A stretch of 13,310 nt of DNA from Candidatus Heimdallarchaeota archaeon (GCA_019057635.1 DXJL01000092.1:1-13310); one strand, 5' to 3'. Positions 1 through 13,090 are shown, counted from the stretch's first letter. Made by a program: numbers and translations. The notes: generated by a model from the sequence alone, not told the origin.

Positions 1-702
1 ACAGGACCAAAAAATTATCCTGTTGTCCCTGGTGTTCCCATTGCTGATATAGGTGGAGGAAGCTTACCGACCGTGATCACAGTTTTAGGTGCCTTGCTTC
101 AGCGTAAGGAAGAACCTCAATATTTTGACATTTCAATGGTTGAGCACCTTCTTCCATTCCTATCAGTTGTTGCGGCAGAATATATAGCAGGTTTAGGAGA
201 ACCTGAGAGAACTTTGCATGCTCTTTCAGGCTATATCCCTTGGTATGGTGTTTACCAAACAAAGGATCAGAAATTCATTTCATTTGCTCCCATTGAAAGC
301 AAATTCTGGAAGAATTTTTGTAATGCCGTAGATCGTTCTGATCTAATTGACAAACAACATAATTTAGAATTATGTGAGGTGGAACTCCCCAAAATCTTTT
401 CCTTGCGTACAACAGATGATTGGATTAATCTATTTGTTAAATTTGATATTCCAGGAGGAGAGGTTCTTACTTTAGATCCTATTTTCCGAAAGAAAGACAG
501 ATTGACAGAGGTAAATCATCCTGAATTGGGAGCAATTAAATTAATTTCTTCTCCATATCTTAATCCTAAAATATCACGCGATTGTCAAGTTGCTCCTAGC
601 TTAGGGGAACATACTAGAGAGATCTTAGAAGAAATCGGAATGAATGAAGACATAGAACGGTTCATGAAAAAAGGAGTAATAAGAACGAATAATTCTGAAT
701 AG
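1..702 (+). CDS. CaiB/BaiF (family III) CoA-transferase, 5'-truncated by window edge
   Basis: Frame 1 is open from base 1 (TGPKNYPVVPGVPIADIGGG..., with the catalytic Asp motif ADIGGG). It continues through DISMVE, YGVYQTKD and the typical C-terminal APSLGEHTREIL. The ORF-track start at 73 is internal. Ends in TAG at 700-702. Confidence 0.92.
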   Translation, partial: TGPKNYPVVPGVPIADIGGGSLPTVITVLGALLQRKEEPQYFDISMVEHLLPFLSVVAAEYIAGLGEPERTLHALSGYIPWYGVYQTKDQKFISFAPIESKFWKNFCNAVDRSDLIDKQHNLELCEVELPKIFSLRTTDDWINLFVKFDIPGGEVLTLDPIFRKKDRLTEVNHPELGAIKLISSPYLNPKISRDCQVAPSLGEHTREILEEIGMNEDIERFMKKGVIRTNNSE

Positions 703-758
703 AAAAATTGATCCTATCCTTCTAGTTGACTTATTGTATCTGATTATTCCATCTATTT

Positions 759-1871
759 TTACTTGGATGGAAGTGGTACAACCAGAGGGTATTCATCCTT
801 GATTCCCATTTCTGCGATCGTATCATTTGGATAAACAGTCATCTTTGTTTGGAGTGATACCATATACCCATCGTATTCAGTTCGTATGTAGCCATCATCT
901 AGAGGCCTACCGACAATATCTGTAAATTTTGCAATTGGTTGTCCCTTAGTAACATAATCTCCTGCCTTTACAATAAACCTGACTATACCTGATCTCTTTA
1001 CCCGTGGATGATCAAATCTTCTAACTCGCTCTGTCGGTTTTGGTACGGGAAATTCTGTTATTTGTTCAATAGATCCATCGAGCATTCCAGCCCATTTTAA
1101 AACATTCCTTGTACCTTTTACGGATCCAGTAATTACCTCAGGAACTAAAAATCGATTTTCCCCTAGCTCTGCAGTGAATGCAGGTATTCCTAGACTATTA
1201 AATGTAGATCCAGAAACCGATCTGTGAAGTTTCATTTTTAAGTATTTATTGGCTGGAAATTCGGCACATACTAGCATTCCAAAAGAATCAACCATTTCTT
1301 TTTGTTGTTTAAAGAGTTTTTCAGCTGCTTCTTTCTCGGATTCATCTTTATAGAATAATCGATCCAGGATCGCGTACGGAATTGATAAGAGTGAATGATT
1401 GTGGAAATCAATGTGATAATCTGCATATTTTTCAAAAATTGAGAAAATTTTGTTTGTTATATGCTCATATAATTTCGGGTATTCTTTATCACCGTTATCG
1501 CTATCTTTTTCCTTAAATTTTCCTTCTGGAAATAATCTATTTGGGTCTCTATCGTCATATTCAGCCTTGTGATGATACTTACGAAAGGCTGAAGGATTTA
1601 AGGTTGGAATTGCGATAACTGTACCTTTCAATTCTTGAGCTAGCTGTTCAGTTACCAATTCATGAATGACAGCCACTCCAGTAAGTTCAAAGCCATGGAC
1701 ATTTGCTGTTAAAAAGAAGGTTGGCCCATCCTTAAGGCCTTGAGCAATCATGACGGGAATTTTTTCTATAATTCCTGTAGGAAGCTCAATACCGTCAATG
1801 AATCCATAGGTTAATTTTCCAGGTTCACTCTTAGCGCTACCAATTTTTATTGCTTTCACCAGTTTAATCAC
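759..1871 (-). CDS. Succinylglutamate desuccinylase/aspartoacylase (AstE/AspA, M14-like zinc hydrolase) family protein
   Basis: HxxE zinc motif (NVHGFE), PTLNP, DPNRLFP, IDFH, catalytic Glu in TAELG, and a C-terminal biotinyl-like hybrid motif (VKAGDYVTKGQPIA). The true start may be GTG at 1859, because a GGTGA SD-like motif overlaps the 1871 GTG. Confidence 0.88.
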   Translation of the reverse strand: MIKLVKAIKIGSAKSEPGKLTYGFIDGIELPTGIIEKIPVMIAQGLKDGPTFFLTANVHGFELTGVAVIHELVTEQLAQELKGTVIAIPTLNPSAFRKYHHKAEYDDRDPNRLFPEGKFKEKDSDNGDKEYPKLYEHITNKIFSIFEKYADYHIDFHNHSLLSIPYAILDRLFYKDESEKEAAEKLFKQQKEMVDSFGMLVCAEFPANKYLKMKLHRSVSGSTFNSLGIPAFTAELGENRFLVPEVITGSVKGTRNVLKWAGMLDGSIEQITEFPVPKPTERVRRFDHPRVKRSGIVRFIVKAGDYVTKGQPIAKFTDIVGRPLDDGYIRTEYDGYMVSLQTKMTVYPNDTIAEMGIKDEYPLVVPLPSK

Positions 1872-2134
1872 CCTTATATTGATGTGAAAAGAGATTCTGA
1901 AAACTAGAATTTTGGTTCTTTAACAATCTTTAGTTCCCGTCAATCCCTATCCTAATAATTTTGAACAAAAGACCTAATGCATTTATGGATATATTTAATC
2001 GTGGATTGAATTTGGCATCTAATCCATTTAAGTGACAATCATTGATAGAAACATAGTTGATAGAGGACCACAGATTGCTAGATCTGGAAGTATCGTCCAC
2101 AGCTTAAATAAAAGGAAATTTGAGGTTCTGAACA

Positions 2135-3337
2135 GTGAAATCGATATCTTTCTTCAATTTCAACATATATACTTTAGCTACTACGAATTTTCTATGGGGA
2201 TTTGTCAATTTCGCGTTTATGATTCAAATCCAGCCATATTTAGTTTCAATATTTGAATCCAATCAAGCAGTTTTACAAATTGTCGGTATATTAATATCTA
2301 TAGGATCGCTTGCTGCAGTTATCCCTCTTCTTCTCGGTTTTCTTGCGGATTCATATGGAAGAAAAATAAATTTACTTTTTGGCCAGATTCTGAGCATTCT
2401 GGGATTATTAGGATTCGCAACAGGGATAACGGATATTTTTCTTCTATTACCAAGTTTTGTTCTATTCAATTTGGGTGTGGGGTTTTATGATGCGCCTCTA
2501 CAGGGACTTATTCACGAATCATCCACAAAAAATCGAGGGTTGGCTTTTTCTATAGTATATAATTCCTCCTATCTTGCTGGGATAATTGCATCATTTTTAC
2601 TTAGGGTCGGAGAAATGGACTTCAAGTTCTTCTTTCAACTAGGATTGTTCTTACTTCTCATAAGCGTTGTGATCAACCTTTCATTGCTTCACGATATCAA
2701 GCCTAATGCTCAGGAACTAGATTTTCCCTTGATTAGAATATTAAGGAATCCGACTTCACGATTAATTGTAATTACCTTTGCGATTGATGCCTTTATCTGG
2801 GGATTACCGCTATCTATTGCAAACACCATATATATACTTGTATTTAAAGTAGACATATCTTTTATTGCAACCTTAACATTGGTTGAGACAATAGTAATGG
2901 TTCTACTTGCCTATCCCGCAGGAATCTTTGTTGATAAATTTGGTAGGATCGCTGGACTCATTGTGGGTGAAATCGTGGGAATAATTTGGATCATCTTTGT
3001 TTTTGCTGCATTTTTTATGCCTGATCATGCTCAGAATTTTATTATTATAGCATATGCGTTTCTAGGGGCTGTAATAGCTTTTTGGCGTCCTTCAGTCACT
3101 CTCAGCTTTATCTCCATTGATTCAAATGCAGCGACCACAAATTTTGGAATCCTTGCTTTTTTCCAGCGTTTAGGTCGCGTACCTTCTGCATTTTTCGCTG
3201 GACTTCTTTTCCCATTTCTTGGATTTCCTCCCCTTCTATTAATAACCTTCTTTGGAACTTTCATAATCATAGGGATCTTCTATCGTATGGATAAGGACGA
3301 GAAAAACGAAAATGAGATAGAGATTATACTTAATTGA
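2135..3337 (+). CDS. Major facilitator superfamily transporter
   Basis: 400 aa with about 12 hydrophobic segments. MFS motif A appears in both halves (GFLADSYGRK; GIFVDKFGR). GAGGT SD-like motif at 2122-2126 precedes the GTG. Substrate is not determinable from sequence. Confidence 0.9.
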   Translation: MKSISFFNFNIYTLATTNFLWGFVNFAFMIQIQPYLVSIFESNQAVLQIVGILISIGSLAAVIPLLLGFLADSYGRKINLLFGQILSILGLLGFATGITDIFLLLPSFVLFNLGVGFYDAPLQGLIHESSTKNRGLAFSIVYNSSYLAGIIASFLLRVGEMDFKFFFQLGLFLLLISVVINLSLLHDIKPNAQELDFPLIRILRNPTSRLIVITFAIDAFIWGLPLSIANTIYILVFKVDISFIATLTLVETIVMVLLAYPAGIFVDKFGRIAGLIVGEIVGIIWIIFVFAAFFMPDHAQNFIIIAYAFLGAVIAFWRPSVTLSFISIDSNAATTNFGILAFFQRLGRVPSAFFAGLLFPFLGFPPLLLITFFGTFIIIGIFYRMDKDEKNENEIEIILN

Positions 3338-3407
3338 TATTTTTCCATATTCAGGACATAATATTCTCTTATTCTTGATTTGAAGAAAAAATTTTGGGAT
3401 GACCTCT

Positions 3408-4637
3408 CTACCATACTTTTTTCAGAAGTCTTAACGCATTTCCACCGATTACTTTAACAATTTCAGGATCGGAATACCCATGTTTGACCATCCATCGTGT
3501 AATATTCTGTAAGCATTCTGTTGGATTTTCCATCCCTTTTACGTAATCTGGTAGAACAGAGACTACTAACCCATCACCTTTTTGTCCAGGTCTTGTATAA
3601 TGTCCCAAACCTCCAGACTTTAGTTGCTCATCTTCCAAACGATATAAACCAACATGGTCCCCATAGAAACTATCAGGACCACAACCTACATATTCTATTC
3701 CTACTAAATCAATACAATATTCAAGATGTTGCATGTATGTTTCAATACTTGGAATAGGATCATCTTTTGTAGCTGTATAACCAGGAGCGGCCTCTATTCC
3801 GATCAAACCTCTGTTCTCAGCTAACTTATGAATAACCTCATCAGGAAACATTCGAGCAATTGGATTTAGTTCACGAGCTCCAGCATGAGAGACGATTAGG
3901 GGTTTTTTGCTTGATTCAATTGCATCTAAAGCTGTCTGATCACTTACATGACTCACATCTATCAAGATCCCCACTTTATTCATGCGGACTATGCAATCAT
4001 ATCCAAAATCTGTTAGTCCTCCATCACGTAGCTCGGCAAGACCAGAACCCAACATATTAGATTCACTGTAATTCAGACCCATTGAGCGTACCCCAAGGCC
4101 ATATAAGATATCCAATCGGTCAACTTCATTTTCAATACTAGAAACAGACTCAAGGACTGCAACCCAGGCAAGTTTCCCTGTCTCAAACGCGGTTACTATG
4201 TCTTTCACTGATTTACAATGAATTACGAATTCTTGATGTGCAATATCGCATAATCGTTGACCCAAATCATGAATTGTATCACTCCATTTCCAACCATGCT
4301 TACTGGTGATATTACAGCTACCATTCATTAAATTATCAAACACAGCATCTATACCTGAGTGGCTTAAAGCCTCATATGCCAAGTATTCGCGCCCTTCTCT
4401 TGAAATTGCACTGGATTCGCGTGCATTTTCTGGCATAATAGTTGGATGTTCATGTAAGTCAATCACGATACTTTTTTCCAGTATTTCTTCTACCCTCTCT
4501 TCTTCAGCCTTCAATAAAGGGACTAAATATGCCCATTCTTTTTTTATTGCATCTCTTAATTTGAATACACGATAATCAATTCCTGGAGTCAAGTATTGAT
4601 ATGCTTTGTATCCAGTGTATGTTTTATTTCTACCCAT
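3408..4637 (-). CDS. Membrane/renal dipeptidase family (peptidase M19) protein, no obvious signal peptide
   Basis: IDLHEH, AVLES, LYGLGVRSMGLNY, GLTDFG...MNKVGILIDVSH, IVSHAG, VGCGPD and the typical terminus GGNALRLLKKVW*. Confidence 0.92.
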   Translation of the reverse strand: MGRNKTYTGYKAYQYLTPGIDYRVFKLRDAIKKEWAYLVPLLKAEEERVEEILEKSIVIDLHEHPTIMPENARESSAISREGREYLAYEALSHSGIDAVFDNLMNGSCNITSKHGWKWSDTIHDLGQRLCDIAHQEFVIHCKSVKDIVTAFETGKLAWVAVLESVSSIENEVDRLDILYGLGVRSMGLNYSESNMLGSGLAELRDGGLTDFGYDCIVRMNKVGILIDVSHVSDQTALDAIESSKKPLIVSHAGARELNPIARMFPDEVIHKLAENRGLIGIEAAPGYTATKDDPIPSIETYMQHLEYCIDLVGIEYVGCGPDSFYGDHVGLYRLEDEQLKSGGLGHYTRPGQKGDGLVVSVLPDYVKGMENPTECLQNITRWMVKHGYSDPEIVKVIGGNALRLLKKVW

Positions 4638-4664
4638 TTCTTTTCATTCCTTCTATTGGCTGTA

Positions 4665-5414
4665 TCAATGCTTGAAAACGGTTGAATTAAGCTTTGTAAA
4701 GTCAGTTCCTGGATATGTGATTCGGCTATGCTTAAGTTGAAGATTCACAAACATTTCAGCCGTTTTTATGCTTATTTTTAGGGGATTTACAACTGGAACG
4801 CCAGTTTTTTCTTCTATTACATCATCTACCATTAGAAATGCCATTGACATACATCCAAGGACAACACTCCCAGCTCCTGAGCGCTTTGCTTTAAGAACGC
4901 TTTGTGTCATTTGTTCAAAGACAATATCCTTCTCCTTTCCCCACATGTCCGTGATTGGAGTATGGACAAATTCTATTGATGCTAACCTAGCTTCAAGTCC
5001 TTTTTCTCTTACTAATATACGAGTACTATCTTCAGACTCGATACCTGATTGTAATACGGTTAGAATACTAAATCTATCAGAAATCATACATGCAAAAAGT
5101 AAAGATGCTTCAGCAGGTCCAATAACGGGAATATCAAGCAGTTCTCTTGCTGGAGCTAGGCCAGGATCTCCTGCACATCCTATAATTATGGCGTCATATT
5201 TGTTCTCTTCTCGAATTAGTACCAATTTTCGTAACATTGGCCCAATGGCCATATATTCTTCAACTGCAGACTCAATAGATAACGGTCCCTCTCCTACTTC
5301 CATTACAGAAACGTGTGTATCAGAGTTGGCAAGTGAATTCGCAATAGACGTACGACGATCAATTTCATCAGCAGACATCCCTTTTCCAGGTAAGAGATAA
5401 AGAATTTTCATCAT
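4665..5414 (-). CDS. Asp/Glu/hydantoin racemase family protein
   Basis: Two catalytic-Cys motifs (IIGCAGDPG and VLGCMSM), GPLSIES and PVIGPAEA. I chose ATG 5414 over TTG 5426 because a GAGG SD-like motif lies just upstream. A 27-bp gap separates it from the dipeptidase, suggesting co-transcription. Confidence 0.9.
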   Translation of the reverse strand: MMKILYLLPGKGMSADEIDRRTSIANSLANSDTHVSVMEVGEGPLSIESAVEEYMAIGPMLRKLVLIREENKYDAIIIGCAGDPGLAPARELLDIPVIGPAEASLLFACMISDRFSILTVLQSGIESEDSTRILVREKGLEARLASIEFVHTPITDMWGKEKDIVFEQMTQSVLKAKRSGAGSVVLGCMSMAFLMVDDVIEEKTGVPVVNPLKISIKTAEMFVNLQLKHSRITYPGTDFTKLNSTVFKH

Positions 5415-5691
5415 TTCTGTCCTCAATAAGTGACAATATTACTCTAGTATAAATTGACGATAAACGTGAGAATTAGGATAATTTAAGTGTGAGAGATTAT
5501 ATTTTTTCTTAGTAGCAAATTATGTCAAACACTATTTTTACATCTGGAGGAAGTTAATAGTAATATCACCGATAGGGAGATTACGCATTCTATCTGCTTA
5601 TGTGTTGATTTTTTATATGAATTCGGATTATTTCTAACATTTTAATATCGATAAAAATGAATTAGATATTGTTGCTCAACGTTGCGTAAGG

Positions 5692-5699
5692 TTTATAAA
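5692..5699 (+). promoter_or_regulatory. Putative archaeal TATA box (TTTATAAA) for the vWA/WD40 gene pair
   Basis: Consensus-like TTTATAAA lies about 75 bp upstream of ATG 5773, preceded by the palindrome CAACGTTG (5677-5684). The AT-rich context limits specificity. Confidence 0.4.
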
Positions 5700-5772: not shown

Positions 5773-7938
5773 ATGAGAAAAAAGTATGATGGAATGATAA
5801 GAATGAAAATAAAAACACTAATTGGATTGATAATTATATTAATGAGTATATTTGCCTATTTAAATCTCTATCAAGAAGGAAGCTTTCTTAATATCGAAAA
5901 AACTAGCGCTATTCCTTTAGTGGTACCAATTGAGTCTAATGATATAACAATTGATATTACAAGTAATGCTAGTGCAATAGGACCTTATTCAAATATAGAA
6001 TTTTCCGTAGGATTAACAAATACACTAGATAAGTCCCTTTATGATATTTCACTCAATGTGAGTGCAAAATCTAACGACATAATAATAGATCCAGCTAGTG
6101 ACCCTTTATTTACGGTTTCTTCTCTTGATCCTGAAATACCCACCAATTTTTCATTCATTACAAAGTATTTAGAAGATTCTTCATCCTCTGCAGTAGATTT
6201 AGTACTTTTAATTGATGCCAGCGGGAGTATGCAAGACGAGATTGACGCTGTAATTGCTGAACTTAATAATCTAATATCTACTTTAACGACCGAAATACCA
6301 GACTTACGTATAGGTGTTATTGTCTTTGGATGGGCGAAGCACTCCGAATATCCTATGTCGAGTCAGTATAACTACGTGCCTTTAACAGATGATTTTTCCA
6401 GCATTACATCCTTTATAAATGGTTTATATGCTCAAGGCGGCGTTGAACCTTGGGGTGATGCTTTTCATCTTGCAAACACTTGGGATTGGCGAGTAGAAGC
6501 GGCCAAATTAATAATATTGGTAGGTGATGAAGATTGTGATCCTGGTAAAATCATTGGTCAAGATATGCAATCATCTGATAGTTACAACGGTTCAGATTTA
6601 TTAGATGTAGTGACAGAAATCAAAAATAAGGAGATTATGATCAGTACAGTCATTTGTGGAGGAGCAGATGATTTGACCATAAATCAGTTTCAATGGATTG
6701 CGGAATTTACTGATGGTACTTCTGTTTTTTTACCTGAACTGATCGCTGAAGGGATTAGCCTTCCTGAAATTATCGAAGAATGGACACTGGAATTGGGACG
6801 TGAATATTTTAAATTTTTCAATCTAACAGTTTTTTGGAGAGATACCCCAGATAGCTCTGGTGATGACTTCATTAACACTCAAATAGAAACTTTTTGGTTA
6901 GATTTTACTCCCCCCTCTGCTATTATCTCAAAGATGATTACTCCCTCAGGAATGGATAGTTATTCGGTTGAATTCTTCATAGAAGTAAGCGATATCTCTC
7001 CGATTGGGTTTGTCACCTTTTACCATAATGCATACGGTCCCTGGACAGTAGAGTACCTAACAGCTCTCGAGAACACATCTAATTATCAATTTAAATTACA
7101 CAATGTTGTGGGAGGAGTAAATCTCTCGTATTTTGTTGAAAGTTCTGATGTTCTGAATAATGCTGGTCAATCATCTATGTCTTGGGTTATTGTAGAACCG
7201 AAATTTGATGAATTTGGTGAAGAAACGGCATTTTGGGTTGAAGCAAACAAAACTATTTACACAAATATAAAAATTCAATTCACAGGCTCATATTATTTTA
7301 TATTATCGGGATCAGAAGAACTTAACCAAATCACAATGGATCTTACAGTGTTAGCCACAAATAATACAGTCCTTCCAACTCAAACTAGTCACGTTAATAT
7401 TAGTTCTCTGTATGGCCGCAAAATTTTCAAATATAATTTAGGTCCTGGTGACCATGCCGTTATTTTGTCAATTCCTTCTAACCTAGGCAATTTTTCGGTA
7501 TCTTACGTCTGGATAGATATGAAACAACCTGTAAATAACATTTTTACTGGGTCTATGACCGATCTCATACGAGCTTTTGGATTTGAATGGGAAGCTTCCG
7601 CAGATGAATATTTCAGTTTCATCTATCAAGCGGGGTCCCCTTTGGTTTTAAGAGCAGAAGTTTATAGCAGTAGCTGGGAACTTATTTCCACCTTTATTAT
7701 CGGTGAAAGTTTACAGTTAACGAAAAACGACACTTATTACATTCTAGTATGGGCTACACTTCGAACAGGAGAATTCACCATCCAGCTAACAGAGGATTCA
7801 CCATTAACAACTTATGATCCATATTACACTTATACTCGGGATGCTATGGCGGGTGCATCTTTTTTCCTTGAATCAGTCTTTACAATATTCCTCATTAGTA
7901 TATTGACAACCAAAATCAAGAAAAAGAAAAGGAAGTAA
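5773..7938 (+). CDS. Secreted, C-terminally anchored vWA (MIDAS) domain surface protein with Ig-like/beta-sandwich domains
   Basis: N-terminal signal/TM segment (KIKTLIGLIIILMSIFAYL; alternative start ATG 5803). vWA domain with DxSxS (DLVLLIDASGSM), GGVEPWGDA and LIILVGD. Beta-rich C-terminal half, 12 N-x-S/T sequons by hand count, and a terminal hydrophobic stretch followed by KIKKKKRK. Confidence 0.85.
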   Translation: MRKKYDGMIRMKIKTLIGLIIILMSIFAYLNLYQEGSFLNIEKTSAIPLVVPIESNDITIDITSNASAIGPYSNIEFSVGLTNTLDKSLYDISLNVSAKSNDIIIDPASDPLFTVSSLDPEIPTNFSFITKYLEDSSSSAVDLVLLIDASGSMQDEIDAVIAELNNLISTLTTEIPDLRIGVIVFGWAKHSEYPMSSQYNYVPLTDDFSSITSFINGLYAQGGVEPWGDAFHLANTWDWRVEAAKLIILVGDEDCDPGKIIGQDMQSSDSYNGSDLLDVVTEIKNKEIMISTVICGGADDLTINQFQWIAEFTDGTSVFLPELIAEGISLPEIIEEWTLELGREYFKFFNLTVFWRDTPDSSGDDFINTQIETFWLDFTPPSAIISKMITPSGMDSYSVEFFIEVSDISPIGFVTFYHNAYGPWTVEYLTALENTSNYQFKLHNVVGGVNLSYFVESSDVLNNAGQSSMSWVIVEPKFDEFGEETAFWVEANKTIYTNIKIQFTGSYYFILSGSEELNQITMDLTVLATNNTVLPTQTSHVNISSLYGRKIFKYNLGPGDHAVILSIPSNLGNFSVSYVWIDMKQPVNNIFTGSMTDLIRAFGFEWEASADEYFSFIYQAGSPLVLRAEVYSSSWELISTFIIGESLQLTKNDTYYILVWATLRTGEFTIQLTEDSPLTTYDPYYTYTRDAMAGASFFLESVFTIFLISILTTKIKKKKRK

Positions 7939-7984
7939 ATTGGTACCATTTCTTTAGAAAAAAACAGATAAGCTTGGTGTCTTT

Positions 7985-10321
7985 ATGAAATACGAGAAAT
8001 TTGTACCATTTTTAGTATTTGCACTGATACTTCCTACTCAGTTACTTTGTCAAATTAACACAGTAGATAGTTTAGAGCATAAATCTTTTCATTCTAAACC
8101 CCTAACAAAAGTAAATCAAGGAGATTTCGTTGTACAAACTCTCATCGGTCATGAATCTGAAGTTTGGGATGTAGCTTTTTCTCCTCAAGGGGATCTCTTG
8201 GCTTCAGCCTCTTCCGATAATTCAATCTTGGTCTGGAATATCAGCACAGGTGCAATCTTTCAGAACCTCACTGGTCATAATAATTCGGTTTTTTCCGTAG
8301 CATTTCATCCGTACGACTCCGTACTTGCTTCTGGATCGTTTGATAGGACAATATTCGTTTGGAATTTGACTACGGGGGAAATAATGTATAATCTCACAGG
8401 TCACACCTCTTCCATTTGGTCTTTGGATTTTAGTCCTGATGGATCGTATCTTGCCTCTGGTTCTGGTGACTCATCTGTAAGACTCTGGGACTATTCATCA
8501 TCGATTTCTTATTTAAACCTCACAGGTCATACTGGTGCTGTTAGGTCGGTTCAATTTCTTCCTAATGGAATACTAGCCTCTGGCTCATATGATAATAGTA
8601 TAATTCTATGGAATATAACATCAGGAAGTTTAGAAACAATTATTTCTAACAATAGTGATAATATTCTCTCGGTAGCTATAAATCCAACTGGAACTAAGTT
8701 GGTTTCAGGATCACAGGATAATCTCCTGGAATCTTGGGATTTGAAAAATTATGGGTTAAAAACTCATCCTACAAAGCTATTAAATGATTGGGTTCGTTCT
8801 GTTGCCTATAGTTATGACGGGTACTATCTAGCCTCAGGTTTGGAAAATGGAGAAATCATTATCTGGGATGACATTTCAAATATACTCGTCATAAATCTTA
8901 CAGGCCACACTCAATCAATTCGCGGTTTAGATTTTCATCCAAAAATTCCTCTTCTTGCCTCAGCATCTGGAGATCAGACTATTAAACTCTGGAATGTAAC
9001 AGATTTAGATAAGGATCAATTACCCGATTCTTGGGAAATAGAGAATGGATTATATCCATCTAATGAAGATGACTGGGCTACCGATCCTGATGGTGATGGT
9101 TTATCGAATATTAATGAGTTTATATTTGGTACAAACCCCCAATTAGCTGATAGTGACTTAGATCAGATGTCAGATTATTATGAGTTTATCTATGGTTTAA
9201 ATGGCAGCTACAATGACGCAAGTGCTGATAATGATCATGATGGTATGCCTAATCTTTATGAATTTCTTAATAATCTCAATTCTGCATTAAATGATTCAAG
9301 CATGGATGCCGATCATGACGGTATGCCGAATATTTATGAATATAAAAATGGGCTTGAAGCTGGTAAAGATGACGCAGACAGCGATTTAGACAACGATGGT
9401 CTACCTAATATCTATGAATATCGTCATAACTTTATCATTGGAATTAATGATGGTGAAGACGACGCAGATTCGGATGGATTAACCAATAGAGAAGAATTTT
9501 TGCTTGGTACTAATCCTCGTGATCCTGACAGCGATAACGATTTTTTCAATGATTATCTAGAAAGTACATTTGGTAGTGATCCGAAAAATTTCTTTTCGAA
9601 TCCAATCACAATTATTCTTGCTATATTAGTAGTCATTTCATTTGTAGGAGTCATCATTTTCAGTACCATCAAGGCTTTTCCCAAGATAAAGGCAAAATCC
9701 AATGCTTACGGTAGAGACATAAAAACTAAGGCTAAAAACATTATTGAATATTACCGGCCTAAACCTCAACAAACATGGGTTCAAGATCTGGTAATGGGCA
9801 AAGCAATTCATGTTGATACGTTATCTTCAGAATTAGAAACTCGTAAACTTAAGCTACCAAATGCTGTCAAAGCTTCCTTAACCCCTCTAAGAATAATGAA
9901 TAAATCTCTTGTACTTAGATCCGATATGTTACTGTTAGAACCGACTCCGCCAAAGGAAACTAATTGTCAAGTTTGTATCGGAGAGATATCTGATCAGCAG
10001 TACCTGCAATGTAATTCTTGTAAAAGATTTGTCTGTATCCATGATTATGTTGATTTAGCCACAGTTGGTTCTACTAATTGTCCTAACTGCTCTGGAGACT
10101 TAGTTATGTTTCCTTTTAGTTGTAAGGGATGTGGATTAGATTTTAGCTCGGTAATTGAAATAACAGGGAAATCAGGTTGTCCCTTATGTGGTTATACACT
10201 AGCTGATCAATTAACTCTCATTAAAAGCGTAACAGCAGGGATTGCTCCTTCTAAAATTACAGAAACTCTTCAAGCAGAGAATGAACAGGACACAAAACCA
10301 GATCTAAAGAGAAAACCCTAA
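7985..10321 (+). CDS. Single-pass membrane protein: signal peptide, 7x WD40, 8x DxDxDG-type Ca-binding repeats, TM helix, cytoplasmic RING-like finger and zinc ribbon
   Basis: Hydrophobic N-terminus; WD40 repeats at aa ~51-338; acidic repeats at aa ~340-535; TM ITIILAILVVISFVGVIIFSTI (aa 541-562) followed by a Lys-rich stretch; Cys clusters at aa 661-702 and 713-735. GGTG SD-like motif at 7976-7979. Confidence 0.85.
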   Translation: MKYEKFVPFLVFALILPTQLLCQINTVDSLEHKSFHSKPLTKVNQGDFVVQTLIGHESEVWDVAFSPQGDLLASASSDNSILVWNISTGAIFQNLTGHNNSVFSVAFHPYDSVLASGSFDRTIFVWNLTTGEIMYNLTGHTSSIWSLDFSPDGSYLASGSGDSSVRLWDYSSSISYLNLTGHTGAVRSVQFLPNGILASGSYDNSIILWNITSGSLETIISNNSDNILSVAINPTGTKLVSGSQDNLLESWDLKNYGLKTHPTKLLNDWVRSVAYSYDGYYLASGLENGEIIIWDDISNILVINLTGHTQSIRGLDFHPKIPLLASASGDQTIKLWNVTDLDKDQLPDSWEIENGLYPSNEDDWATDPDGDGLSNINEFIFGTNPQLADSDLDQMSDYYEFIYGLNGSYNDASADNDHDGMPNLYEFLNNLNSALNDSSMDADHDGMPNIYEYKNGLEAGKDDADSDLDNDGLPNIYEYRHNFIIGINDGEDDADSDGLTNREEFLLGTNPRDPDSDNDFFNDYLESTFGSDPKNFFSNPITIILAILVVISFVGVIIFSTIKAFPKIKAKSNAYGRDIKTKAKNIIEYYRPKPQQTWVQDLVMGKAIHVDTLSSELETRKLKLPNAVKASLTPLRIMNKSLVLRSDMLLLEPTPPKETNCQVCIGEISDQQYLQCNSCKRFVCIHDYVDLATVGSTNCPNCSGDLVMFPFSCKGCGLDFSSVIEITGKSGCPLCGYTLADQLTLIKSVTAGIAPSKITETLQAENEQDTKPDLKRKP
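8135..8998 (+). repeat. Seven WD40 repeats (42-aa / 126-bp period)
   Basis: GH...LASGSxD..I..W[DN] units. The NLTGH codons start at 8264, 8390, 8516 and 8894, which are multiples of 126 bp apart. Confidence 0.92.
9002..9598 (+). repeat. Eight thrombospondin-type-3-like DxDxDG(L/M)x(N/D)xxE calcium-binding repeats
   Basis: Units start at 9002, 9083, 9149, 9227, 9305, 9383, 9461 and 9527. The five units from 9149 to 9461 have an exact 78-bp period. Confidence 0.88.
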
Positions 10322-10323
10322 TA

Positions 10324-11475
10324 TCAATCACTCATTGAGTTCATGAATCTATCACCTATTTCTTTTGGTGTTAAAGGGATTTTTCCGACCTCCGCATTTA
10401 ATGGTCTGATAAATATCTGAATGAATTGATAATCAGATAAATTAGGAACTAATGCCATTAAATTTGATCTATCACTGATATTAGCGAACTTAGACGGTTG
10501 GAATCCAAATCCGTGTACCACAATGCTAAAATCAATAAATCCTAAATTATAAAGGGTCGGTTGATTCCCTGTTGAACCATAACTCCCATTATTCAAACAA
10601 ATTATCGTTAAATTATTAGGCGAATATGCAGTAATCATTGGAAGAATACCAGGACTCATCAACATACTCCCGTCTCCTTCAAGGACATAAATTTGCTTAT
10701 TTGGTTGATACCTAGCTATACCAATGCCGATAGCACTCACTTGTCCAAAGCTCCCAGTCATATAGAAAAAATGTGATTGATCGTTCACATGGTATAATTC
10801 TCGTGCTGGAAATCCAATATTAGCGATGATAAGATCTTTCTTAGTCATATTATCAGTAAGGTCTTTAAGAACGTCTATTCGGGTCATACTGGGATTAACA
10901 GTGCAATTTTTTTGTTTCACCTCTTCTTGATAATGCTTTAGATGTGAAACTTCAAAAGTTTTTTCAGAGTACAGATCTTGCGACTTTGTCCATACTCTTG
11001 GGGAACAAAGGAGGACTAATACTTTCCGTTGTTCATACACTTGAAGAATTTTGTCTCCAAATGATGCTATATCGGTACTCTCATCTATTATGTGAGTTTC
11101 TATATCCAAAGCTGTAAGAAGCTTTTCTACAACCCTTCCAAAAATTTTCTGTGCAGCGATTGGTTCATCGATTACTCCTCTCCAGCTTGCCATTATCAGC
11201 AGGGGGAATTGATATGTTAATGTCAAGGAGGCAATAGTATTAAGGATGTTTCCTATTCCTGTACTCTATATTAGCATAGCTGGTTTCATACCAGCCATAT
11301 ATGCACCTGCAGCAATACCTACACCGTGTTCTTCACGGGTAATTTCTAGAATGTCAAATTCATCGGTTTCGGAAAGTAAATTCAATATTGTTTGTAACCG
11401 AGCACAGGGATTCGTTAAGAGAACATTTACTCCAGTCTCACTTAATACCCCTAATAATTGCTCCTCAAAGATCAT
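10324..11475 (-). pseudogene. comDE: Fused sulfopyruvate decarboxylase ComDE-like TPP enzyme (383 codons) interrupted by one in-frame TAG at 11266-11268; pseudogene, sequencing error or read-through
   Basis: ORFs 11266..11475 and 10324..11226 are in the same frame. Reading through gives ...[37 protein letters not shown]..., matching ComD-type 'MQNSGLGN..NAL.SL'. The ComE-like half has ANIGFPARELY, FYMTGSFG and the TPP motif GDGS...NNGSYGSTGNQ. Phosphonopyruvate decarboxylase is the main alternative call. Confidence 0.8.
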
Positions 11476-11481
11476 TCATTT

Positions 11482-12675
11482 TCACACATTAAACAGCGAA
11501 TAAAAACCTAGCAAAGCATACAAGGCGGTCCCTTTCCAAAGTACTGCTTCATCTACATCAAAGTGAGGATGATGATGGGGCGAAGTGATACCTTTTTCCT
11601 CATTATATATTCCCAAGGTTAGAAAGGCTCCCTTGGTCTTTTGTAAATAAAAAGCGAAATCTTCACCACCCATAGAAGGATCCATTGAGACATAACTTAG
11701 TTCAGTGCCTTTTAAAATTTCAATTACTTCATCTACTGATTGAGCATCATTTATTAGAGGAGGATATGGTATCATGTCACCTTCATTGAAGGCTACTGAT
11801 CCTTCACATCGCCAAGCTTTGCAATATCCTTGTACAATCTCTGGAATTCTTGTAACGATGTGATCTCTAATCTTGGGATCCATAGTTCTAAATGTACCTT
11901 CCAACTTCGCTTCTCGTGGGATCACATTAAACGCGTCGCTTGCTTGCATAACTGGAGTGGTAATAATAACATCACTAAAGGGGTCTATCTCGCGAGAGAC
12001 TATTTTCTGGAGAGCATTATAAATATCGACAAGAACTGCGGTGGGATCAATGGTTTGGTGAGGTGCAGCGGCATGGCCTCCTTTCCCAGTAATAATCACC
12101 GTAAATGTATCTGCAGAAGCCAACATAGCCCCTTTTCGTGAACCAATAATACCTGCTTCCAGTTCTCGCCAAACATGAATACCAAAGATTTTATCCACAT
12201 CATCCAGGTGACCTTCATCACAGATCAGTTTACCTCCTCCACCACCTTCTTCTGCAGGTTGAAAAAGGAGCTTTATGGTTCCAGAAAGTTGGCCACGATA
12301 TTTAAATATTAGTTTAGCAGCCCCTAACAACATAGCCGTATGTGCGTCATGCCCACAAGCATGCATCTTCCCAGGAATTGTACTTGCATATTCAACATCA
12401 TTTTCTTCTGTGAGATTTAAAGCATCAGTATCTGCACGTAATGCAATTGTTGGGCCAGTTTTCTTACCATTCAAAACCCCAATGACCCCTGTCCTAGCAG
12501 TTCTTATAGTATCAAAACCAAGTTTTTTTAATTCTGCTTCAATGAGATCACGGGTTTTTACTTCTTCAAAAGCTGTTTCGGGATGCATATGTATATATCT
12601 ACGTGTATTTATAACATAAGTCTCTATTTCCTTAGCTTCCTGTATAAGTAATTGCTTTAATTCTTTTACATTCAT
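11482..12675 (-). CDS. M20D family amidohydrolase (aminoacylase/carboxypeptidase-like)
   Basis: HMHPETAFEE, ALRADTDAL, MHACGHDAH, FQPAEE, GKGGHAA, GGEDF and HHPHFDVDE motifs. ATG 12675, with AAGGA upstream, is preferred over GTG 12690. A 6-bp gap separates it from comDE. Confidence 0.93.
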   Translation of the reverse strand: MNVKELKQLLIQEAKEIETYVINTRRYIHMHPETAFEEVKTRDLIEAELKKLGFDTIRTARTGVIGVLNGKKTGPTIALRADTDALNLTEENDVEYASTIPGKMHACGHDAHTAMLLGAAKLIFKYRGQLSGTIKLLFQPAEEGGGGGKLICDEGHLDDVDKIFGIHVWRELEAGIIGSRKGAMLASADTFTVIITGKGGHAAAPHQTIDPTAVLVDIYNALQKIVSREIDPFSDVIITTPVMQASDAFNVIPREAKLEGTFRTMDPKIRDHIVTRIPEIVQGYCKAWRCEGSVAFNEGDMIPYPPLINDAQSVDEVIEILKGTELSYVSMDPSMGGEDFAFYLQKTKGAFLTLGIYNEEKGITSPHHHPHFDVDEAVLWKGTALYALLGFYSLFNV

Positions 12676-13090
12676 TGTTACATCCTTCACTTGTCTTTTA
12701 GTTAAGAATTCATATTAATTATGACCTCATATTGATGATTATAAAACATATTTTGATATTGAAAGAGAATGAATATTGATAAAGGGTTGATAACTATCTG
12801 TTATTTTGGGGGTAAATAGGGACATTTATGGACAAATAGGAAAAGAAGATTTCAAGGGGATGAGAGAAACAGATAGCTAGTTACTGAAGGAAAAGGGAAG
12901 AAAAGGGGATAGAGATTAAAAAATAGCATTAACAGATGATTGAACCGATCTCATGAGATTATAACACTAGCAATGAACTAGTTTACCTCTTGATACTAGA
13001 ATAACGGAAAATAAGCAAATTTGATTTGGATCACGGGGTTTAATAGGTTTATAAGCAGAAAAGCTCCTACTCAATCAGTATTACTATATA

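Follow-up and report, generated by a model that had tools for sequence, protein, structure and literature searches.

A conserved gene pair of Asgard archaea encodes a candidate two-chain surface receptor that recalls integrins in outline

Introduction

Do two neighbouring surface-protein genes of an Asgard archaeon encode the chains of one receptor, and would that receptor be built like an integrin? Asgard archaea are the archaeal group closest to eukaryotes. The question is raised by a stretch of 13,310 nt of DNA from Candidatus Heimdallarchaeota archaeon (GCA_019057635.1 DXJL01000092.1:1-13310; hereafter the window), in which two co-oriented genes, A and B, are separated by 46 bp (Table 1). 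A first-pass annotation of the window had proposed that A, an anchored protein with a vWA domain, and B, a propeller protein with a cytoplasmic zinc-finger tail, form a cation-dependent heterodimer analogous to integrins. Here we report that the A–B pair is real and conserved and that its products probably form a heterodimer. Domain content, topology signals, kept pairing, partner exchange and an upstream motif are established by sequence analysis and searches; the pair recalls integrins in outline, and neither chain is an integrin subunit.

Table 1. Features of the A–B locus, in window coordinates.
Feature	Position	Strand	Basis or remark
Candidate operator, tandem TTGC/GCAA-type palindromic repeats, then TATA box (5692-5699)	5672..5699	+	upstream of A
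Gene A, exported C-terminally anchored vWA protein	5773..7938	+	721 aa
A, first part of split Ig-like domain (res 55-137)	5935..6183	+	strands 58-132 in model
A, vWA domain (res 138-343)	6184..6801	+	MIDAS D148-x-S150-x-S152
A, second part of split Ig-like domain, two strands (res 344-378)	6802..6906	+	model
A, stalk of three further beta-sandwich domains (res 379-675)	6907..7797	+	model
A, hydrophobic C-terminal anchor, then basic stub; cytoplasmic domain absent	7849..7935	+	sequence
Gene B, single-pass type I membrane protein	7985..10321	+	778 aa
B, extracellular 7-blade WD40 propeller (res 46-338)	8120..8998	+	sequon-rich; predicted A-docking face
B, bacterial TSP3-type DxDxDG repeat stalk (res 339-538)	8999..9598	+	TSP3_bac
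B, transmembrane helix (res 541-559)	9605..9661	+	hydrophobicity, model
B, cytoplasmic helix-strand unit (res 597-655)	9773..9949	+	predicted secondary structure
B, RING-like finger C661-x2-C-x11-C-x2-C-x4-C-x2-D687-x11-C-x2-C702	9965..10090	+	Cys pattern
B, second zinc ribbon C713/C716/C732/C735	10121..10189	+	Cys pattern

Two exported and anchored products

Both reading frames and their spacing are as first annotated, and the likely start of gene A is Met11 at 5803, from which the database call of 711 aa also begins. By itself the 46-bp gap is uninformative, because the genome median is 45 bp (n = 1059 co-oriented pairs). Hydrophobic segments at residues 15-33 and 693-711 of A and 6-24 and 541-559 of B bear out the proposal that both products are exported and anchored. 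Both are also sequon-rich, with 12 sequons in 666 aa of A (1.8 per 100 aa) and 12 in the 517-aa ectodomain of B (2.3 per 100 aa), densities above the 99th percentile of 1.6 per 100 aa among 882 TM-less proteins of the same genome, so an outside location fits. Named homologues are mostly from Hodarchaeales or Heimdallarchaeota, with few under other labels.

In A, the Pfam VWA profile matches residues 142-306 (37.8 bits, cut-off 23.8) with DxSxS intact, and D148, S150 and S152 are invariant in 24/24 aligned homologues; E156, E225-P226, W239-R240 and D252-E253 are also invariant. A structural model built from 22 sequences (mean pLDDT 77.8) flanks the vWA domain with strands 58-132 before and 344-377 after it; as modelled, the vWA domain is plugged into an Ig-like domain, with three more beta-sandwiches behind. 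The Ig-like region of an A homologue gave a CARDB match (E 0.022), and searches with the first stalk sandwich matched a peptidylarginine deiminase, through its Ig-like domain (E 4e-4), as well as repeats found in large surface proteins. A search for related loci returned only 7 distant vWA proteins.

The vWA protein lacks a cytoplasmic domain, as had been noted: the C-terminal hydrophobic segment is followed by a basic stub of ~7 residues, and all 35 A-family C-termini inspected carry a short basic stub. Heimdall-/Loki-CTERM matches were obtained for the C-termini of 6/6 A homologues, one of them over the cut-off. The window copy of A gave no such match, and a search of the source genome (92% complete) for exosortase/archaeosortase PF09721 found none. 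A may undergo cleavage at a signal of CTERM type, and its Lys-rich stub would then be lost.

B combines seven WD40 repeats with a DxDxDG stalk (TSP3_bac, 34.7 bits against a cut-off of 25). All ten DxDxD-type motifs lie within the stalk (residues 340-515) and none in the propeller; the stalk is shorter in the copies of genomes G013 and G014. Of the 12 sequons in the ectodomain of B, nine recur in 12 or more of the 16 homologues. By fold search, the propeller is nearest to regular bacterial WD40s; in a wide fold search of B, WD40s took up the results, so that the folds of the stalk and tail were barely sampled.

The finger and ribbon are the most conserved parts of B (mean identity 65-67%, against 57% for the propeller). 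In the zinc-finger tail, 11 Cys are invariant in 16/16 homologues, but the RING-like finger falls under every Pfam RING cut-off (15.9 against 21 bits). Its spacing equals that of the p44 C4C4 RING, with Asp687 as sixth ligand, and a profile of 20 related fingers matches p44/Ssl1, CesA and CNOT4 RINGs (E 7e-4 to 4e-3); PHD fingers score similarly. After the last Cys, B has Ser where Arg is frequent in active RINGs. The source genome encodes 2 ubiquitins and 4 E2s over cut-off. The finger of B could have E3 activity of its own, at odds that we put somewhat short of even. Ahead of the finger, the order of predicted elements in residues 597-655 suggests an unconfirmed winged-helix-like unit, for which there was no Pfam match. 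The tail had no usable match in a feature atlas, and a tree of the tail has weak support at several nodes. We discounted a carbonic anhydrase match of the tail (E 0.004), which reflects the Cys pattern. The resemblance of both the A vWA domain and the B finger to parts of TFIIH p44 was taken as coincidence because the membrane separates the two.

The tail module of B is found in other contexts as well: following a NosD-like beta-helix ectodomain, following a multi-TM domain and standing alone (L090:6682-8523; L092:3149-4387; L091:2790-3647; L086:10164-10712). Eight more source-genome proteins match the RING-like pattern, one loosely (contigs C72, C82, C111, C114, C127, C189 and C203); an E2 gene lies ~3 kb from one of them on C82.

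Pairing within the window's own family

A is present in 13/24 genomes of the order, in 15 copies. Twelve of these form a main clade, and B is present in 12/12 of those genomes; the three paralogous copies are without B, and a full-length B without A was not found among the 24 genomes. A transducer directly adjoins A in 10 of the 15 copies. In four cases A and B adjoin in the same orientation, one of these pairs being divided between two contigs, and in six they adjoin but converge, with 4-33 bp between stops. In G014, ~8.5 kb and three genes separate A and B (two Rag/Gtr-like GTPase genes and a gene for a 1554-aa surface protein; L085:9729-13082). In G013, A and B are on two contigs with the same flanks as in G014. 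In an otherwise syntenic locus of G005 (L087:9835-11703), A and the 5' half of B are jointly missing, through a deletion or an assembly fault.

Does this arrangement point to one transcript? The genes are co-oriented in the window, and no common sequence was seen by eye in the four A–B gaps, so read-through in the co-oriented clade fits. However, 8/12 orthologous pairs face each other, which leaves no shared transcript for those. The orientation history is read from a quick tree, which groups all eight together (support 91) and has co-oriented outgroups; a single inversion therefore suffices. As one clade has flipped B, co-transcription is not required. Adjacency within the family is weak evidence on its own, because 64/105 sampled gene pairs also stay adjacent. 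The absence of flips among these (0/64) carries little weight, because the A–B flip is a single event.

The partner is exchanged between families

Across four Asgard families, a single-pass transducer lies next to A at 42/51 loci (10/15 in the window's family, 22/22 in family f4, 8/11 in f7 and 2/3 in f27). The survey of other Asgard genomes upheld the pairing, which, contrary to the caveat that adjacency might be chance, is kept far beyond chance. As a background, 10/49 gene pairs stay adjacent across families, all co-oriented. The 42 loci represent about four lineages, related genomes not being independent. Nine of the 51 A copies have no adjacent transducer, and for seven of those there is none nearby. 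Partner-type proteins are scarce in the source genome, where a TM segment before a RING-like pattern occurs in 4/2833 proteins and a type I protein with a long tail in 10/2833.

What persists next to A is a layout of one TM helix followed by a cytoplasmic output; the 7-blade propeller of the window's B does not, since the ectodomain differs by family. A occurs in 44/83 genomes of the class. In f4, a 435-aa gene with signal, ectodomain, TM and RING-H2 directly follows A at all 22 loci (stop-split in two genomes), and 4/4 partners tested reach the Pfam zf-RING_2 cut-off. In f7, a 1006-aa gene follows A in 8 of the 11 copies (8/9 genomes) and encodes a different ectodomain, a TM, a zinc ribbon and RING-H2. 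The zinc-finger region is the sole part that the f4 and f7 partners have in common with B. Beyond the class, 251 phylum genomes were sampled, and f27 was the only family in which full-length A turned up (3/61 in a second count); there, at 2/3 loci, it is followed by a signal-ectodomain-TM protein bearing a double winged helix (by Pfam for G164, judged by eye for G285). Judged from these sequences, the output is a RING in three Heimdallarchaeia families and a winged helix in one family of another class. The module is old and modular, with A retained and the transducer exchanged among relatives, and a functional link between A and B is very likely.

No propeller match was found in the f4 and f27 partners, and the f7 partner had no FG-GAP Pfam match and no integrin alpha match by profile. 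The f7 partner (L125-L131, L184) has DxDxD-type motifs in a probable propeller, then Ig-like domains, a TM, a helical region, a zinc ribbon and RING-H2; that its propeller may be FG-GAP-like comes from atlas features (score 0.85), as a lead only. A further gene pair, on contig C174 of the source genome, combines an anchored surface protein with a type I protein whose tail is HTH-like.

An upstream site and the flanking genes

The 28-bp candidate operator is kept before A in G006, G007 and the three paralogous A copies. A matrix built without the window site scores that site at 37.4 bits; one other place in the genome scores, on C154 before a wHTH-ParA operon, and three shuffled genomes gave 0, 1 and 0 matches of at least 16 bits. 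The pattern occurs in 12/24 genomes, with none in a reversed control; upstream of A in 15 other genomes tested it was not found (best score 0.9 bits). The sequence at 5692-5699 is presumably a TATA box, as we take it from the archaeal consensus. A sigma-70 scan, unsuited to an archaeon, was at chance level (28 against 21.6 +/- 4.2).

In the C154 operon (G000:C154:3155-5972; L191), the operator is followed by genes for a wHTH-like protein of 147 aa, a ParA/MinD-like ATPase and a membrane protein of 495 aa; the wHTH identity of the 147-aa protein is weak (TrmB, E 0.002). The wHTH-ParA operon is head-to-head (divergent) with A in G004 and many f4 genomes. In G015, G020, G010 and G018 (L192, L193, L194 and L195), the operator lies between the wHTH-ParA operon and another surface-gene set, which comprises an anchored protein of 300 aa, a membrane protein of 560 aa and a zinc-ribbon protein with several TM segments; Pfam matches are mostly absent from this set. 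We infer that the wHTH protein may control A.

The window flanks (1-5426 and 10324-12690) encode CoA-transferase III, AstE/AspA deacylase, an MFS transporter, M19 dipeptidase, Asp/Glu/hydantoin racemase, a TPP enzyme and M20 peptidase. These genes stay near A–B only in the closest clade. The TPP reading frame, with 300 aa in the window against 383 aa in three relatives, may be truncated.

A predicted A–B complex

We modelled A(50-480) with B(46-540), together with three controls. The A–B complex scored 0.70 and the best control 0.00; this mark is reached by 116/157 solved and 2/215 mismatched pairs, a calibration that is rough here, own alignments having been used. The runs share at least 96% of contacts, with a partner pLDDT of 81-84. 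On A, the confident contacts are residues 86-88, 116-117, 120-122 and 359. Every one of these belongs to the split Ig domain, whose first part (residues 55-137) contains the predicted B-binding loops 86-88 and 116-122. On B, they are residues 58-59, 77, 100-101, 119-120, 142-143, 161, 185-187, 202, 226, 287, 310-311 and 329-330, which fall in loops of almost all blades. The confident contacts include no vWA residue; residues not named here are uncertain and not excluded. The model thus supports the binding that had been proposed but does not support the proposed geometry of a vWA domain on a propeller: the dimer idea gains support, integrin geometry none.

The predicted interface is small (32-35 contacts). 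The WD40 face that it uses is the usual peptide-binding face, to which many peptides bind, so the score may partly reflect likeness to solved WD40-peptide complexes. On the strength of the model, we consider physical contact of A with B likely.

A proposed mechanism and its alternatives

Our preferred reading, to which we give slightly better than even odds, is that A and B are the two chains of one surface receptor, of co-component type. A is an anchored surface chain without a cytoplasmic domain, and its MIDAS vWA domain would bind an outside ligand via a divalent cation. The predicted docking is between the WD40 propeller of B and loops of the Ig domain into which the vWA domain is inserted, and this would leave the MIDAS free. 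The Ca-repeat stalk and single helix of B could then relay the state of the complex inward, and the RING-like finger and zinc ribbon might recruit an E2 or another protein partner, the least certain step.

Alternatively, A and B could be two surface proteins in one process, or members of a mere surface-gene island, that form no stable complex. High background synteny within the family would be consistent with this, as would the convergent and separated arrangements, the unrelated ectodomains of the partners and the other anchored-plus-type-I pair of the source genome. Against it stand the recurrent pairing, in four families, of A with proteins of a scarce type, the score of the A–B model relative to its controls and joint presence in 12/12 genomes, and we regard the absence of a complex as unlikely.

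The same predicted contact would arise if B were a membrane ubiquitin ligase and A its client or adaptor, with turnover or sorting of A or of cargo and no signal. The RING-H2 partners of f4 and f7, the ubiquitin and E2 genes of the genome, the Lys-rich stub that ends A and a reported Asgard E1-E2-RING cascade tied to ESCRT (10.1101/2023.07.25.550441) are compatible with such a role. However, the f27 partner ends in a double winged helix of DNA-binding type, which fits signalling better than turnover, and the possible CTERM-type cleavage of A would deprive it of the Lys stub. We hold this reading, too, to be improbable as an account of the pair.

An integrin-type heterodimer, with the vWA domain on the propeller, a joint cation-dependent pocket and possibly ancestry shared with integrin beta, is very unlikely, despite the likenesses set out in the final section, since the confident contacts are confined to Ig loops.

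Previous descriptions and significance

The asCOG tables of Liu et al. 2021 could contain the A and B families. A literature search, with supplements and most subscription papers outside it, found no description of the A–B pair. Term look-ups in PMC12962969 and 10.1101/2020.10.19.343400 gave no match. Integrin repeats in two Asgard phyla are cited in PMC9197732, and PMC9258230 describes a different family that is tubulin-linked and integrin-beta-4-like. The work on the Asgard E1-E2-RING cascade, which demonstrated that cascade, raises receptor internalisation as an open question.

The preferred reading, of a co-component receptor, bears on two questions: how Asgard archaea sense contact, and what the surface targets of their ubiquitin-ESCRT system are. 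It offers a concrete candidate: the interface loops, the metal site and the output finger are all specified, the genome supplies cognate E2s, a candidate operator lies upstream, and the natural partner swaps among families could serve as specificity controls. It also bears on the origin of integrin parts, the same parts being found here in a differently wired two-chain receptor. We would give rather little credence to a broader proposal, that of an Asgard heterodimeric receptor made of a beta-I-like vWA-Ig chain and an exchangeable single-pass chain and signalling by ubiquitylation, with the f7 version, whose partner may bear an FG-GAP-like propeller on Ig legs, as a living relative of the parts that gave rise to the integrin head and to receptor-type E3 ligases.

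Comparison with integrins and other known systems

The likeness to integrin alpha-beta heterodimers (beta-3, -6, -8 and -1) lies in the MIDAS vWA domain of A inserted in an Ig-like domain, its beta-I-like motif order, the 7-blade propeller of B and the predicted heterodimer. A family profile aligns the Ig-vWA junction of A to integrin beta-6, -3 and -1 (E 4.7e-4 to 5e-3), pairing LPLT-D, WR and D252, and Foldseek with A ranks integrin beta chains from 2 on. In the ADMIDAS region, E156 and D252 are invariant and residue 155 is variable, with E156 at an ADMIDAS-like position. These observations, with the FG-GAP-like lead in the f7 partner, are what an integrin-type reading has in its favour. Yet several other proteins fit the vWA core at least as well as integrin beta-8: TFIIH p44 (Z 20.7), a Catenulispora vWA (19.4), ITIH1 (19.0) and Mfa5 (18.1), against 17.7 for beta-8 (rmsd 3.6, 196 aligned), whose alignment to A reaches residue 381 and leaves the first Ig half unaligned. 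The beta-6 'PEG' Glu (MIDAS/SyMBS) faces Trp227 of A in a weak alignment segment, with the invariant E225 two residues earlier. A has 2 Cys in 721 aa and no tail, and therefore is not an integrin beta; the propeller of B resembles bacterial WD40s, and the f4 and f27 partners lack a propeller match.

Five or six strands precede the vWA domain in A and two follow it, a split unlike the strand split of the integrin hybrid domain. A is without PSI, I-EGF and an NPxY tail. In integrin alpha chains, DxDxD motifs sit in the propeller blades; in B they are placed in a separate stalk. The propeller is WD40 and not FG-GAP, so the original caveat against alpha-integrin orthology holds; the leg is a helical TSP3-type stalk instead of thigh and calf Ig legs, and GFFKR is absent. 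The predicted contact is made via the Ig of A and not its vWA domain, and it is the propeller chain that carries the output, a zinc finger.

Layouts with a vWA domain in a sandwich are widespread, PitA and SpaC being among the structural matches of A. In PitA, SpaC, Mfa5 and ITIH1, as in A, the vWA domain is plugged into a beta-sandwich on a stalk; these are pilus tips or secreted chains, and we know of no dedicated transducer gene beside them. For ITIH1, the layout is described in PMC10539598. The propeller of B shares its regular 7-blade form with T. curvata PkwA (5yzv; 40% identity, TM-score 0.96), differing in that topology places it outside the cell and that its N-glycosylation sequons are conserved.

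Eukaryotic receptor-type RING ligases such as RNF43/ZNRF3 and RNF13/GRAIL share with B a signal peptide, an ectodomain, one TM helix and a cytoplasmic RING or RING-like finger. B differs from them in having no PA domain and a finger nearer the C4C4 type (p44/Ssl1, CNOT4, CesA) with Asp at ligand 6.

Finally, the bacterial co-component systems VtrA/VtrC and ToxR/ToxS (10.1101/2022.04.08.487670) resemble A–B in having adjacent genes, an anchored outside sensor, a single-pass transducer with cytoplasmic output and fast-evolving outside domains, and the f27 version has a winged-helix output too. They differ in that A carries a vWA-Ig unit instead of the lipocalin of VtrA/VtrC, B is type I, the output in the window is RING-like, and the A–B pair is archaeal, with a heterodimer that is predicted. 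By analogy, A–B would work like a co-component system with an output like that of a receptor-type RING ligase.
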